A DNA stretch of 36,092 bases from Tepidisphaerales bacterium (GCA_038222915.1 JBBRHH010000001.1:1-36092); one strand, 5' to 3'; shown: positions 21,385-33,811, numbered from the stretch's first letter. The notes: generated by a model not told the origin, from the letters alone. Numbers and translations: made by a program.

Positions 21385-21673
21385 GACTCCATTCTAGCGA
21401 ATCAAAACCGCACGTCATGAACGCCAGCCACTGATTCGCAAGTGTCCCAAGCGCCGAGCGCACATCGTTTGGGCCACGGACAGGAACTGTCATCGCGGGA
21501 ACTTTGGCACTCGCTGGGTTACCATGTCGTGCTGATGCAGGTCAACGCGGGCTGTTCGTGCTCGTACGGAGATCGCGGCACCTGCCGCTGGCAGAATGGA
21601 AGCCGCGCGCGTGCAGTGGCGCGGAGCAAGATAGTCGAGAATCATTTCGTTTCAGAAATTCGGAGGTTCATGC
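21385..21673. other. strand-composition (GC and AT skew) sign switch in a divergent intergenic region; candidate origin or rearrangement junction
   Basis: Left of it the plus strand is C/A-rich and right of it G/T-rich, from hand counts and codon reading. The flanking genes diverge. No DnaA box or AT-rich unwinding element was recognised. Confidence 0.4.
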
Positions 21674-31800: not shown

Positions 31801-31884
31801 GGATCCGGGGCAAGCCTGTTTTTTGACGGGTCAGATCTGTTCATCCGAGGCGGCAACGATCTGTATCGCGTCACCGGGAAATAG
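28831..31884 (+). CDS. secreted tandem PQQ-like (BamB-like) beta-propeller repeat protein, 1017 aa
   Basis: Signal peptide, then two propeller units. Each opens with the family signature: DWPQYRGPTRDG, and GWRGDGTGHF...W. Repeated ...G.V.ALD..TGK..W-type blades are joined by a Thr/Pro-rich linker (about 30570-30700). ATG 28837 is an alternative start. Confidence 0.85.
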   Translation: MRMLLRTLLMFSIFSSVCTAAADLTAPPPAIADWPQYRGPTRDGIAPVGPKLLDHWPKEGPKLIWKSASLWNKLGGGTEKDLLPHSGCGSITIAGGRAFIFANFKRNTGEAGKVVLTTKDLTSLGWIEGVPDDLAKKVEVERTKGKGAKLKRGPELDAYAKKYIADVDPELTKQFGPWIQRRLTKEPPPKNLNRLIEAEASALNGDPIFEWSFLEKLATVRDKEFPTVEAMDAQLDGVLNPWKSNSGNAVRVLLINRAISYFDAIICLDAATGAQIWRKEFPGSVSPYAGAANVGASSTPAIWEDKCYVAGSTAMYCLSVNDGSVVWQDETEFSNSSPLLKNGIAYVLVPEPTAYDAKTGRILWRQPSLNNPNSSFISWSSGGKDYLIISFQGGVYSTPSGGIYCLDPANGAVLWKTFCPGSSVPVLAGVDTLVMESSHNMTMAFKISPEKIEKIWETKKTGDTRGESPVIFQDHVYISGGCHSNNPLRCLDLKTGEILWNPRQMSAAEASSPVLVDGKIIAMLENSENSLYAVMYRATPEQYEELGRFNPDAGPGASPVVVSGKLYLRLQDCIACYDLTGPDQGAPAFATTRTSTPPLTITPASTTRPAATNNTKPVLTDSTNIRGWRGDGTGHFALAEPPTQWSETKNVKWRTAVGAGSSTPVASGNRVFVTSEKCTLNCIDRKSGQLLWKKTTRVQDAPADFRETVQDSFERPRPSGLAAATPVCDGEHVFVLFGTGEVSCYDFEGNRTWSRFIKPAAMQYGHSASPLLADGTLVVSLDGLTALDSKTGKTIWENKAVKPAYGCPVLMTLGATRLVITPTGFVVRLADGSILAKEIAENLEGDEYSISPLVHDNVVYYMDSNCSAVKLSLNGESVVKKTLWTTELPEAAIGSPTYHNGLIFVCTTTGHYSVCDATTGKPVLIDPKSGKSMDDCVLGQDAPDDSTVANFYPSVTIADKCVYVSNDKGRTFVLDAAKSFKEVQRNTLPAGSGASLFFDGSDLFIRGGNDLYRVTGK

Positions 31885-32353
31885 ACGACGCCCTACGCGC
31901 AAGCTCGGCGTTCACCGCCTCCATAAAAGCATTCCGCTGGCTGGCCGAACAATCGGTCAGCGCCTTGAGCGAAACCTTCCTGCCACTCGTGAGGATCAGT
32001 TTGACCGGATCCACCGCATTCACCAGCTTGCACGTCCGAATCGCGTCGTAGGGAATGTGCTGCGCTTTTCCCAGACCGCGAAAGGTAACGCCTTCCCCCG
32101 TGCATCCAACGAAAGATCGGCCGGCCCTGTAAAACTCCAGTACCGCGGCACCCATGGGGATCAGGCCCAGGCAAATGACCGCCACAGAAAATAAACTGCT
32201 CGGGCGGGCCATAATTCCGAAGTTGATCACCACCAACCCAAAGAAGAAGCCCATCACCGCCCGGACAATCACAAAGCGCCAACGCGGACGATAAAAGGCC
32301 GTCATCGGCGTTGCATAAGGGAGAGGCTGGGAATCACCGCCGAGCATTCTCAC
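31871..32353 (-). CDS. small membrane protein: two N-terminal TM helices plus a bacterial-PH-like (bPH_2/DUF304-like) soluble domain
   Basis: The GTG start overlaps the stop of the upstream gene (GTGA at 32350-32353); ATG 32347 is an alternative. TM helices: FVIVRAVMGFFFGLVVINFGI and LFSVAVICLGLIPMGAAVLEF. G/T-ending codons. The domain call is tentative. Confidence 0.6.
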   Translation of the reverse strand: MRMLGGDSQPLPYATPMTAFYRPRWRFVIVRAVMGFFFGLVVINFGIMARPSSLFSVAVICLGLIPMGAAVLEFYRAGRSFVGCTGEGVTFRGLGKAQHIPYDAIRTCKLVNAVDPVKLILTSGRKVSLKALTDCSASQRNAFMEAVNAELARRASSISR

Positions 32354-32919
32354 TTCCCATCAAGCCGCCGCTGCACATCCATGACCAGTCGCTCGAATCT
32401 GGGAAATGACTCCGAGTCATCCTTGAGTTCCAGCAGCGCCGGAAGCTCGCGACGAACATGCGCCAGATCCAATCGACCGTGTTGCCGCGCCAGGATGCTC
32501 TCCACATCACCCCAATCCCGGTCACGCGAAGCGAATATTTTGTGAATCAGAAGATCTTCCGCGGAACAGGTCGTGAGCGAGGCCATGTCACTCAGCTTCC
32601 ATGCTGTCGCCCGTTCGATGGAGCTTTCCTCAAATGGAAATGCTCCCAGCGAAAAATCGAGATCAACGCCCCCTGCCGTGCGAGCGAGCAAGACACGCTG
32701 TTCGATGGCAAATTGCCGCGCATTCCGCACCCGGCCTTCAAACGCCTTCAACAACGTGTCGATGAAGCGCTCCTCCACGCCGAGCCCGGTCAACAGCGTG
32801 ACATCCACATCCTGCGTGAAACGTGGCATTCCCCAGCGCTGCACCGCGACGCCGCCAATGAAGCAAAACCGCCACCTCTGGCTCAGGCAGAATTGTTCCA
32901 CCTCGGCCGCCGCCCTCAT
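32350..32919 (-). CDS. minimal Pol-beta-fold nucleotidyltransferase (MNT-like)
   Basis: hG[GS]-x11-DxD motif FIGGVAVQRWGMPRFTQDVDV, a candidate third carboxylate in GGVDLDFS, and the helical tail EDLLIHKIFASRDRDWGDVESIL. ATG 32919 lies 12 nt after AAGGAG. An alternative TTG at 32940 overlaps the upstream stop. Confidence 0.7.
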   Translation of the reverse strand: MRAAAEVEQFCLSQRWRFCFIGGVAVQRWGMPRFTQDVDVTLLTGLGVEERFIDTLLKAFEGRVRNARQFAIEQRVLLARTAGGVDLDFSLGAFPFEESSIERATAWKLSDMASLTTCSAEDLLIHKIFASRDRDWGDVESILARQHGRLDLAHVRRELPALLELKDDSESFPRFERLVMDVQRRLDGK

Positions 32920-32936
32920 GATGCCGGCCAGCTCCT

Positions 32937-33200
32937 TCAAGCTTTTCTCCGGCCGTGGAAAATCGCCTGCTGCTCCACAAGCCCCGACCAATCCGGACGC
33001 TCCCGCCACGGTTCCTCCGCAACGCACAACGTCGCGATGATGCGCAACGCCTCTTCATCAGTCATGGCGGCCAATGCGCGTAGCCGGATGGTCTCCAGTA
33101 GCTCCGTCCTGATCCGATATTCCTTTCGCCACTGCTCCTTGTCCTGAATCGGCGTCATTTGAATATTGTATCGCGTAACCAACGCTGTAACAGGCGACAT
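32937..33200 (-). CDS. small helical hypothetical protein (73-88 aa), putative partner of the nucleotidyltransferase
   Basis: ORF with possible starts at 33203 (GTG), 33200 (ATG) and 33158 (ATG). It ends 17 nt before, or overlapping, the next gene. The translation is predicted helical and charged (WRKEYRIRTELLETIRLRALAAMTDEEALRII). Confidence 0.5.
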   Translation of the reverse strand: MSPVTALVTRYNIQMTPIQDKEQWRKEYRIRTELLETIRLRALAAMTDEEALRIIATLCVAEEPWRERPDWSGLVEQQAIFHGRRKA

Positions 33201-33221
33201 CACGTTGTCGCGGTACTTTCA

Positions 33222-33647
33222 TCACAGCGAACTCGCCACATCAAATTGGAGTGTCCGAACCTGCCCCCACTCCGTGATCAAAAGCGCTCGCGACGAGGCC
33301 CGTTCCACAACAAGCAGTTCGTGGGAGCTGGGCCGCCAGTAAAGACCGATGAGATTCCGACGGACTTCCTCGAAAGAAGCACCATGGCTCTCATTGCCGG
33401 CAAGATTAATGGTCTCCAGCGTCCTCTCGTTGAACTTTCCGAGTCCAGGCAAAGCATTGGCCAAATCGAAATTGTCTCCGTCGCAGTCCAAATTCGGGAT
33501 CGGCAGCGGCGTGGATCGCTTGCAGATGCACAAGTGAACCTCACGCCAACCGGCAGTCGCACGCAAGTCAAGCCGGGAGCAAAGCCAAGTGAGTACGGAT
33601 TGTTCTTCCTCCACCGAAAGCGGCCTGGAAAATAAGCGGCTATCCAC
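33222..33647 (-). CDS. hypothetical protein (141 aa), first gene of the four-gene cassette
   Basis: GTG start at 33647, with consistent G/T-ending codon usage across the whole ORF. The competing ORF 33278..33691 translates to Arg/Cys/Trp-rich sequence after its first 25 codons. Confidence 0.55.
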   Translation of the reverse strand: MDSRLFSRPLSVEEEQSVLTWLCSRLDLRATAGWREVHLCICKRSTPLPIPNLDCDGDNFDLANALPGLGKFNERTLETINLAGNESHGASFEEVRRNLIGLYWRPSSHELLVVERASSRALLITEWGQVRTLQFDVASSL

Positions 33648-33700
33648 GCGCGTATCCCTTCGATAGATTTCTCGTCGACGGCATTATTCAAATGTTATAT

Positions 33701-33725
33701 CCCGCGACATCGCAGACGCCGCGGG
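33701..33725 (-). terminator. GC-rich hairpin (CCCGCG...CGCGGG, extendable to about 10 bp) followed by an A/T-rich tail; candidate terminator after the peroxidase gene
   Basis: Read on the minus strand about 90 nt after the peroxidase stop. The tail ATATAACATTT is not a clean U-run. Confidence 0.3.
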
Positions 33726-33811
33726 CCCGGAACCAAACGGCGGATTTTCCGAACCCAGTTTATCAAGCCCCCGGCGCGTCCAGCCCATGGATCGAAAGGA
33801 GATCCGCTCGA

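Follow-up and report, generated by a model that had tools for sequence, protein, structure and literature searches.

A putative MenAT1-type toxin-antitoxin operon followed by an orphan membrane protein gene in a Tepidisphaerales bacterium

The window analysed here, a stretch of 36,092 nucleotides from a Tepidisphaerales bacterium (GCA_038222915.1, JBBRHH010000001.1:1-36092), contains four closely packed minus-strand open reading frames (ORFs), designated A, B, C and D in 5' to 3' order (Table 1). A preliminary description made from the sequence alone regarded them as one tightly coupled four-gene cassette, with resemblances to toxin-antitoxin (TA), abortive-infection and signalling-type defence systems. 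All four ORFs are present where they had been placed, and the two overlaps reported between them were found again: the stop codon of B overlaps a TTG start codon of C (cTTGA, 32937-32940), which is followed by AAGGAG and an ATG at 32919, and the stop codon of C overlaps a GTG start codon of D (GTGA, 32350-32353). The gap between A and B had been given as 18-21 nt; with B starting at ATG 33158, it is therefore 63 nt and contains the predicted promoter of B and C.

Table 1. Features of the B-C locus and its immediate surroundings in the window.
Feature	Position	Strand	Basis
ORF A (141 codons), a probable non-gene	33222..33647	-	No homologue, low codon score
-10-like hexamer TACAAT (predicted function)	33165..33170	-	Sequence and TANNNT enrichment across family loci
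Gene B, 73-aa putative antitoxin without family assignment	32937..33158	-	Family alignment, conserved pairing with C
Gene C, 196-aa AbiEii/DUF1814 (MenT1-like) nucleotidyltransferase, putative toxin	32350..32940	-	PF08843, AF2 model, Foldseek
Gene D, orphan 2-TM membrane protein, ~158-160 aa, small C-terminal domain	31871..32353	-	One relative, codon score

The product of gene C is a member of the AbiEii/DUF1814 family PF08843 and has the MenT1 fold. It scores 32.0 bits against the PF08843 profile (E 1.6e-7; gathering cut-off 22.5), and the same family is found in the precomputed annotation of most of its homologues. MenT1 was the sole PDB match in a profile search with C. The AF2 model of the protein (pLDDT 92, pTM 0.86) was compared with known structures using Foldseek, and the top five matches were all MenT1 (entries 8an4, 8an5 and 8rr5), aligned over the full length at TM 0.72-0.78 and with E-values down to 2e-10, while the next fold reached TM 0.51 and CD-NTase structures only 0.23-0.34. 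The sequence identity between C and MenT1 is only 18-19%. The Pol-beta nucleotidyltransferase (NTase) motif FIGGVAVQRWGMPRFTQDVDV attributed to C is present, and the NTase motifs GGVAVQRWGMPRFTQDVDV, DLDF, HK(127) and RDRD(135)WGD(138) together comprise every element of the pattern used for recognition, namely GG-x(9-13)-D-x-D, a third acidic residue, a catalytic Lys and a C-terminal D-x-x-D. None of the residues G22, G23, T35, D37, D88, K127, D135 and D138 varies among 19 diverse members of the family. T35, D37, K127 and D138 align with T39, D41, K137 and D152 of MenT1, which matter for activity and phosphorylation of that toxin (PMC11375011). The threonine lies in PRFTQDVD in C and in PRFTRDVD in MenT1; it is T35 in the 189-aa numbering of C, T42 in the 196-aa protein and T39 in MenT1. 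Gene callers place the start of C at the ATG at 32919 (189 aa). The TTG that overlaps the B stop (196 aa) is most likely the actual start, because it adds the residues LKELAGI, in agreement with MxELxGV, the conserved N-terminus of the family. The family comprises more than 1,853 protein clusters, with 585 stretches confirmed as relatives in a species-representative genome set; in the literature, DUF6036 was found in no paper and this subfamily is treated in none.

Gene B encodes a protein of 73 aa, with relatives of about 75 aa, and is probably helical. The family is characterized by a central motif, R-E-L-x-x-h-T-(D/E)-E, and a C-terminal one, SGLVEQQxxF, the C-terminus being its best-conserved part. 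In the B of the window, Ala replaces a Glu that is nearly invariant in the family. B has no relative in Pfam or the PDB, and profile searches of both detected no sequence similarity to MenA1 or any known antitoxin; a profile of 31 B-family sequences searched against the PDB retrieved no chain of the MenAT1 entry 8AN5 at E <= 10. The start codon of B is most likely ATG 33158 and not GTG 33203, an alternative start further upstream, because homologues start at the former and because the hexamer TACAAT lies 6 nt upstream of it, as it does across the family. Of 75 family loci, 54 have a TANNNT hexamer that precedes the B start by 5-8 nt (mode 6); position-randomised controls gave 2.2 +/- 1.4. Because this -10-like box abuts the ATG of B, it suggests that the B-C operon is leaderless and self-contained, with its transcript starting at or beside the A of ATG 33158. 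A consensus scan of 31.5-34 kb returned no sigma-70 consensus site; the scan threshold missed the TACAAT box, which is not accompanied by a good -35 element.

The pairing of B with C is maintained across a wide range of genomes. Of 80 genome loci with C, labelled as at least 10 phyla, 76 have a B-family ORF immediately upstream of it, and in 58 of these the two genes overlap by 4 nt; the labels of the metagenome-assembled genomes (MAGs) that carry the C family include Planctomycetota, Verrucomicrobiota, Acidobacteriota, Methylomirabilota and other phyla. All-against-all clustering of the flanking ORFs in the 80 loci yielded B and no other recurrent neighbour family, and tblastn searches with A, B and D against the same loci found B alone. 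Homologues of A and D are absent from all 80 loci. The lack of co-occurrence of A-B-C-D orthologues is an outcome that the preliminary description had itself set against its proposal. In a search for small transmembrane (TM) genes analogous to D, the genes downstream of C proved to be diverse in other loci. Among them, unrelated genes have the same 4-nt overlap with the end of C (e.g. glycosyltransferase-like ORFs in loci L046, L070 and L080), and tight packing with C is therefore not specific to D. The C family is patchily distributed across phyla at 50-74% identity, a pattern that fits a horizontally spread TA module. No member was found in plasmids, phages or IMG/VR viral contigs; absence from such elements is unusual for mobile TA modules.

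ORF A is probably not a gene, and its region is most likely non-coding spacer. Real genes in the window number about 30, but ORFs of 120 aa or more number 88, and A is for this reason no more than would be expected by chance. No 140-codon window of the host genes scores as low in codon usage as A does (-0.047). A homologue search with A came back empty, without so much as A itself from a gene call, Pfam, PADLOC and NCBIfam gave no match, and the alternative ORFs of the region have no Pfam match. A lies within a spacer of ~650 nt between a peroxidase gene and the predicted B-C promoter. The spacer resembles none of the loci compared and has no Rfam match, and an Rfam scan of 31.5-34 kb detected no RNA family.

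Gene D is a real and lineage-restricted orphan outside the conserved module. The two hydrophobic helices described for it were recovered at residues 23-49 and 54-86 of its model, and these N-terminal TM helices are followed by a domain of ~75 aa; the AF2 single-sequence model has an overall pLDDT of 59, and its soluble domain, at <50, is unreliable. A word-indexed search with D found only D itself, and an exhaustive HMMER search over 1.84 billion cluster representatives, which stand for 15 billion proteins, found one relative, P0122 (31% identity, E 1e-9). The gene of P0122 adjoins a PAP2 phosphatase gene, and there is no NTase on its contig. Because the P0122 alignment reaches upstream of M17, the start of D is placed at GTG 32353 or ATG 32347. 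A profile of D and P0122 found nothing in the PDB. The label 'bPH-like' given to D is weakly plausible: P0122 matches bPH_6 with E 0.007 (16.8 bits, below the Pfam cut-off of 22), and a Pfam search with D itself gave no bPH match. The codon score of D is 0.14. Terminator-like sites between C and D were sought, and none was found beyond weak intragenic matches. D may share a transcript with C, which it abuts.

The surroundings of the locus are housekeeping genes and not a defence island. The preliminary description had also pointed to a strand composition discordant with the flanks. The plus-strand GC skew of B, C and D (-0.13 to -0.23, compared with about +/-0.1 in the flanks) is weak evidence of this because it is within the range of a G-rich coding strand. 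The codon scores of the three genes are alike (0.11-0.15) and indeed low: the host genes average 0.35, and the three rank near the 5th percentile, still in the host range. A 14-nt direct repeat (13/14 identical; 31862-31875 and 33167-33180) brackets B-C-D. The chance expectation for such a repeat in 2.5 kb is estimated at ~0.5 pairs, and three such two-copy families were found. An inverted repeat of 13 nt surrounds ORF A. Both repeats were considered as insertion scars and rejected, being near chance expectation. A relative lacking the module was sought in metagenomes via the flanking peroxidase; the 80 loci, with identities of up to 65%, had no synteny. Exact-protein look-ups with D (144 aa) and SerRS found no match, and C also lies on an identical Logan contig of 1,023 nt. 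PADLOC models, proposed earlier as a check on the locus, gave no significant match for the four proteins: A, B and D had none at E <= 1, and the sole match of C at that threshold was to JetA (E 0.02, 11.6 bits).

On this evidence, the conserved functional unit at the locus is probably the two-gene operon B-C, a chromosomal TA module of the MenAT1 type. We infer the toxicity of C, its neutralisation by B, its tRNA target and its phospho-regulation along the following lines. C, the putative toxin, would, by analogy with MenT1, extend tRNAs with nucleotides at their 3' acceptor ends, and this modification would block aminoacylation and lead to arrest of translation and growth. B, the putative antitoxin, would be translated immediately ahead of C, with which it shares a probably leaderless mRNA and a stop/start codon overlap. 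Binding of B would hold C in an inactive state through sequestration and possibly also by triggering auto-phosphorylation of the conserved loop threonine T35. D would be unrelated to this function; its position just after C would be coincidental, and transcription from the B-C promoter may continue into it.

The broadest alternative takes A-B-C-D as one system, possibly anti-phage, in which the NTase would signal to or act with D as membrane effector and A and B would be accessory or regulatory. The location of all four ORFs on one strand, the overlapping stop and start codons at B/C and C/D, the lack of a terminator-like site between C and D other than the weak intragenic matches and the atypical codon usage common to B, C and D are in its favour. 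However, A and D occur in 0 of the 80 C loci, in which B is the sole recurrent neighbour, A has neither a coding signal nor a gene call, and a conserved predicted promoter separates A from B. Neither does the role of D as membrane effector of a signalling-type defence find a counterpart in the data, as C lacks the CD-NTase fold (TM ~0.3), the only relative of D is not beside an NTase, no significant PADLOC match was obtained for A-D (C to JetA, E 0.02) and the neighbours are housekeeping genes. We regard this reading as extremely improbable, and a four-gene defence cassette is not supported. A narrower version, in which B-C-D is a local operon of this lineage and D was acquired with or recruited to the TA pair, with which it would be linked in function, perhaps serving as a membrane sensor or second target, is very unlikely. 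It would account for the start of D (GTG 32353 or ATG 32347) overlapping or abutting the C stop, with the region upstream of M17 conserved in P0122, for the similarly low codon scores of B, C and D and for the direct repeat around them. Against it, no D-like protein was found beside any other family member despite a search over representatives of 15 billion proteins, unrelated downstream genes show the same 4-nt overlap elsewhere, a repeat of such length is about what chance provides in 2.5 kb and 5th-percentile codon scores are still inside the host range.

It is also unlikely that C is no toxin but a benign small-molecule or RNA-maturation nucleotidyltransferase, such as a resistance-type ANT(2'')/Lnu enzyme, with B as its regulatory subunit or chaperone. 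The secondary structural matches of the C model are ANT(2'')-Ia, LnuA and TM1012 (TM 0.45-0.54), none of the family is on plasmids or phages, and no PADLOC defence model recognises C beyond the JetA match at E 0.02; all of this would suit such an enzyme. Nevertheless, MenT1 fits the model far more closely (TM 0.72-0.78, E 1e-10) and does so along the entire chain, and the Pfam match of C is to a toxin family. The strict coupling to a small, overlapping upstream partner and the patchy cross-phylum spread are typical of TA modules, and the Thr that serves as phospho-acceptor for antitoxin control of MenT1 is invariant in the C family. The earlier comparison of a small helical protein and a minimal NTase with AbiEii/MenAT-type TA systems holds for B-C with respect to PF08843, the PDB profile match, the fold and the pairing.

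In annotation, the B-C pair alone merits the status of a unit (putative MenAT1-like TA), A should be left uncalled and D entered as an independent hypothetical membrane protein. The value of the finding is modest: minimal, putative AbiEii/MenT1-like toxins make up a large subfamily that spans phyla, and they come with a conserved small partner without family assignment. No new kind of biology follows from this, and a new defence system is not supported. The family offers a ready sequence set with which groups working on MenT toxins could address the generality of antitoxin-induced auto-phosphorylation. Quite possibly, and we propose this tentatively, B founds a previously unrecognised and very widespread antitoxin family that would neutralise MenT1-like toxins via its invariant C-terminal SGLVEQQxxF, the pair being encoded on a conserved leaderless mRNA. 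If true, neutralisation based on SGLVEQQxxF would be a binding mode different from that of the MenA1 N-terminal helix, and antitoxin-controlled tRNA-nucleotidyltransferase toxins would extend to Planctomycetota, Verrucomicrobiota, Acidobacteriota and other largely uncultured phyla.

Among known systems, CBASS-like signalling defence does not fit the locus: C resembles CD-NTases only at TM 0.23-0.34 and is accompanied by no co-occurring membrane effector (D in 0/80). D itself is similar to bPH membrane proteins (e.g. Pfam bPH_6) in having two TM helices followed by a small domain. MNT-HEPN (type VII) modules share with B-C a tight two-gene operon of a minimal Pol-beta-fold NTase and a small helical protein. 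In these modules, it is the HEPN RNase that is toxic, with the NTase as its antitoxin. The analogy, which had been drawn for the proposed cassette, does not extend to the families involved: no HEPN match was found in A, B or D, and C matches PF08843 and not an MNT-type family. AbiE (AbiEi/AbiEii; type IV TA and abortive infection in Lactococcus and Streptococcus agalactiae) has a toxin that belongs to PF08843 like C, and its antitoxin gene likewise precedes the toxin gene. AbiEii toxins are ~100 aa longer than C. The AbiEi-type antitoxin (COG5340, winged-helix) has no counterpart in A or B by Pfam at E <= 1, and B has only 73 aa. JetA (E 0.02) is the only PADLOC match of C at E <= 1, and therefore no AbiE model matches it. 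Unlike AbiE, the B-C family showed no link to phage in the phage and IMG/VR searches.

The closest known system is MenAT1 of Mycobacterium tuberculosis (Rv0078B-Rv0078A; PDB 8AN4, 8AN5 and 8RR5), which is bicistronic like B-C. MenA1 has 68 aa, lacks a DNA-binding domain and is encoded upstream of MenT1 (PMC10435456). Both pairs thus place a small antitoxin (68 aa in MenA1, ~73 aa in B, where the role is putative) upstream of a minimal DUF1814 NTase of ~196 aa, and the equivalents of MenT1 T39, D41, K137, D149 and D152 are conserved in C. The two differ in that the toxins are only 18-19% identical and B does not resemble MenA1 in sequence. It is the N-terminal helix through which MenA1 acts (PMC11375011), whereas the conserved SGLVEQQxxF motif of B is C-terminal. 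Unlike MenAT1, the B-C family has a -10-like box abutting the start codon and occurs in MAGs labelled Planctomycetota, Verrucomicrobiota, Acidobacteriota, Methylomirabilota and others. B-C is a putative new member of the known MenAT1 type of TA module, equipped with an uncharacterised antitoxin family.

Gene C encodes a nucleotidyltransferase that scores 32 bits against Pfam AbiEii PF08843, above the gathering score of 22.5, and just short of the Pfam score for DUF6036; PADLOC models gave no significant match (the sole match was JetA, E 0.02), and none of the NCBIfam models matched. Its family comprises at least 1,853 protein clusters at E <= 0.001, nearly all of 188-201 aa, and identity to C is 59-75% among the best 120 of these clusters. 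The toxin family of C is already named in NCBI annotation: among the matches listed, the few named relatives are called 'nucleotidyl transferase AbiEii/AbiGii toxin family protein' or 'hypothetical protein' and originate from Planctomycetota, Verrucomicrobiota, Vicinamibacterales and Methylomirabilota. A profile search of the PDB with C matched just one sequence, that of the M. tuberculosis toxin MenT1 (196 aa; 8AN4, 8AN5, 8RR5; E 1.8e-5). An AlphaFold model built from the family alignment (pLDDT 92, pTM 0.86) likewise returned MenT1 chains as the top five Foldseek hits in the PDB (TM 0.72-0.78, E down to 2.4e-10), followed by the next fold at TM 0.51 and by CD-NTases at only ~0.3. Across 19 diverse family members 54 positions are invariant, including GG...PRFTxD, the D of DLDF, the TCSAEDL block, K127, and D135 and D138 of RDRDWGD. 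The MenT1 residues with experimentally shown importance, namely T39 (the auto-phosphorylation site), D41, K137 and D152 (PMC11375011), correspond to T35, D37, K127 and D138 of C (189-aa numbering), and all four are invariant in the family. Because the seven residues added by the TTG start match the family N-termini (MxELxGV...), the start of C is taken as 32940.

The companion of C is gene B. A scan of a species-representative genome set confirmed at least 585 relatives of C among 600 pattern-matched stretches, and 80 loci, all from MAGs labelled as many phyla, were kept for comparison. Searches of these loci by tblastn with the window proteins found B in 48, in each case immediately 5' of C. 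The B family was then collected by taking, in each locus, the ORF whose end coincides with the start of C, and its profile recognises the ORF upstream of C in 76 of the 80 loci, with the stop of B overlapping the start of C by 4 nt in 58 of those 76. Its members are ~75 aa long, with a central R-E-L-x-x-h-T-(D/E)-E motif and a near-invariant C-terminal SGLVEQQxxF. Searches of Pfam gave no match to the family, for which neither Pfam nor NCBIfam has a model, and the PDB offered no relative, the MenA1 chain of 8AN5 included. Clustering of all flanking ORFs of the 80 loci yielded no other recurrent neighbour of C, only generic families (e.g. ABC ATPases, kinases) within subsets of related genomes.

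Residue 28 of the window's own B (33075-33077) is Ala, against Glu in at least 90% of the family, and the R-E-L motif reads RALAAM, not RELAAM; the change could be neutral or could weaken the antitoxin. Phylum counts for the C family need care because near-identical contigs carry different phylum labels: two contigs are 99.96-100% identical (L041/L042), yet their MAGs are labelled Elusimicrobia and Rokubacteria, and two others 98% identical (L072/L073), yet labelled betaproteobacterium and Acidobacteriota, suggesting misbinning or a very recent transfer.

Coordinates of the four ORFs and of the promoter-like box
Feature	Position	Strand	Remarks
ORF A	33222-33647	minus	141 aa, GTG start
Gene B	32937-33158 from ATG; alternative 32937-33203	minus	73 aa from ATG
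Gene C	32350-32940 from TTG; alternative 32350-32919 from ATG	minus	
Gene D	31871-32353	minus	
-10-like box TACAAT	33170-33165	minus	followed by ATTCAA, then ATG at 33158

The ORF coordinates bear out the four minus-strand ORFs of the preliminary description, and the sequence reads as it gave for both overlaps: cTTGA holds the B stop and the TTG start of C, with AAGGAG and then an ATG behind it, and GTGA holds the C stop and the GTG start of D, with another ATG 3 nt past the stop. Though the ORFs and overlaps exist, the status of A is in doubt, and the gap of 18-21 nt proposed between A and B was misjudged, the start of B being set at ATG 33158 by a -10-like hexamer (TATAAT, TATACT, TACAAT or similar) that lies ~6 nt 5' of the ATG. 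In 54 of 75 family loci a TANNNT hexamer stands 5-8 nt (mode 6) ahead of a codon that could plausibly start B, compared with 2.2 +/- 1.4 (maximum 7) for random start codons in the same loci. The placement of the box therefore gives a B of 73 aa. From these hexamers we infer a promoter belonging to the B-C operon itself and translation from a leaderless or nearly leaderless mRNA; they also suggest leaderless mRNAs as the usual mode of expression across the B-C family.

Since the putative promoter lies downstream of the A stop (33222) and marks the 5' boundary of the module, A falls outside the unit. No homologues of A were found among 5.8 billion proteins and no match among Pfam, PADLOC or NCBIfam models, and A has no self-entry in the protein collection, whereas the gene-called C and D each have one. 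Under a codon-usage log-odds model trained on 17 confident window genes, A scores -0.047, under the minimum (-0.005) of host 140-codon windows (0.355 +/- 0.114, 1st percentile 0.073). Chance alone often produces ORFs as long as A in this 59% GC window (88 of at least 120 aa), and other ORFs in the region of A have no family match. In all likelihood A does not represent a gene. The spacer from the peroxidase stop to the B-C promoter (33159-33811, ~650 nt) is unusually long and apparently non-coding; Rfam gave no match to it, none of its frames matched a family, and it resembles neither the compared loci nor the rest of the window.

Several lines of evidence mark D as a real gene: two gene callers predict it, its codon score (0.14) exceeds the 95th percentile of non-coding frames, and it has two confidently predicted TM helices. 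A word-indexed homologue search found D alone. When 1.84 billion cluster representatives were scanned exhaustively with HMMER, a single relative emerged, P0122 (31% identity, E 1e-9), which adjoins a divergent PAP2 phosphatase gene on a 2.6-kb contig from which B and C are absent. Because their alignment reaches upstream of D's ATG at M17, the start of D is either the GTG that overlaps the stop codon of C or the ATG lying 3 nt beyond that stop. The label 'bPH-like' is weakly plausible for D, judging from a sub-threshold match of P0122 to bPH_6 (E 0.007); D itself has no match to bPH_6. D may be co-transcribed with B-C in the window; it is not a conserved partner of the pair. ORFs starting near the C stop in other loci are diverse and mutually unrelated, and some of them overlap that stop by 4 nt, like D.

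The proposal of a defence cassette of four genes, one of them encoding a membrane effector, does not survive the comparison, as tblastn recovered A and D in none of the 80 C-relative loci and the neighbours are ordinary chromosomal genes. The flanks are two convergent or tandem host genes, a PQQ-type beta-propeller gene (1,017 aa; convergent with D, the 3' ends sharing 14 nt, 31871-31884) and an animal-haem-peroxidase homologue (756 aa), and farther out lie an ECF sigma/anti-sigma pair, SerRS, MraY, MurF and MurE. This is an ordinary chromosomal context, not a defence island. The codon usage of B, C and D, at about the 5th percentile of the host, is compatible with foreign origin, and the discordant strand composition noted earlier for the block is present as a skew difference from its flanks, but a small one. 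No synteny defining insertion boundaries was found among relatives of the neighbouring peroxidase, and the C family was not found in plasmid, phage and viral collections.

Two short repeats lie in the region. A 14-nt direct repeat, TGTATCGCGT[C/A]ACC (13/14 identical), brackets B-C-D at 31862-31875 and 33167-33180, with one copy at the D stop and PQQ gene end and the other just upstream of the B start; its length is near that expected by chance, and the similarity ends with the repeat itself. A 13-nt inverted pair, CATTTGAATA[T/A]TG at 33156-33168 (+) and 33682-33694 (-), occurs nowhere else in the 36-kb window and brackets the ORF A region with arms 513 nt apart, one arm covering part of the -10 box together with the start codon of B. 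The pair may serve as an operator, may be terminal repeats left by a small element now decayed, or may have arisen by chance. Both repeats are about what chance allows, and no conclusion is drawn from them. On a larger scale, the window's strands are very strongly asymmetric: throughout the first 21.4 kb, plus-strand GC skew lies between -0.2 and -0.5 independent of gene orientation (MraY, MurF and MurE on the minus strand, UDP-sugar pyrophosphorylase on the plus strand), flips abruptly near 21,400 to +0.05 to +0.24 and later drops to about 0. No DnaA-box cluster was found. The switch could be replication-related, an assembly join or an island boundary.

The toxin-antitoxin-like reading holds for B-C, given a MenT1-like C and the conserved ORF upstream of it, and the best-supported interpretation is a pair of the MenAT1 type. 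MenT toxins are described as adding nucleotides at tRNA acceptor ends, with aminoacylation blocked. MenA1 is a 68-aa antitoxin without a DNA-binding domain, encoded upstream of MenT1 (PMC10435456), and it acts doubly, sequestering MenT1 and inducing its auto-phosphorylation at T39 (PMC11375011). By analogy, C would be the toxin, with tRNA as its putative target by likeness to MenT, and B would neutralise it. On a tentative reading, which we judge to fall a little short of probable, B stands for an antitoxin family that is new and widespread and has a binding mode of its own. C retains the MenT1 fold and every key residue, and B resembles MenA1 in size, position and coupling; in contrast, B has no detectable homology to MenA1, and its conservation is concentrated at the C-terminus rather than in an N-terminal helix, so its neutralising contact may differ from that of MenA1.
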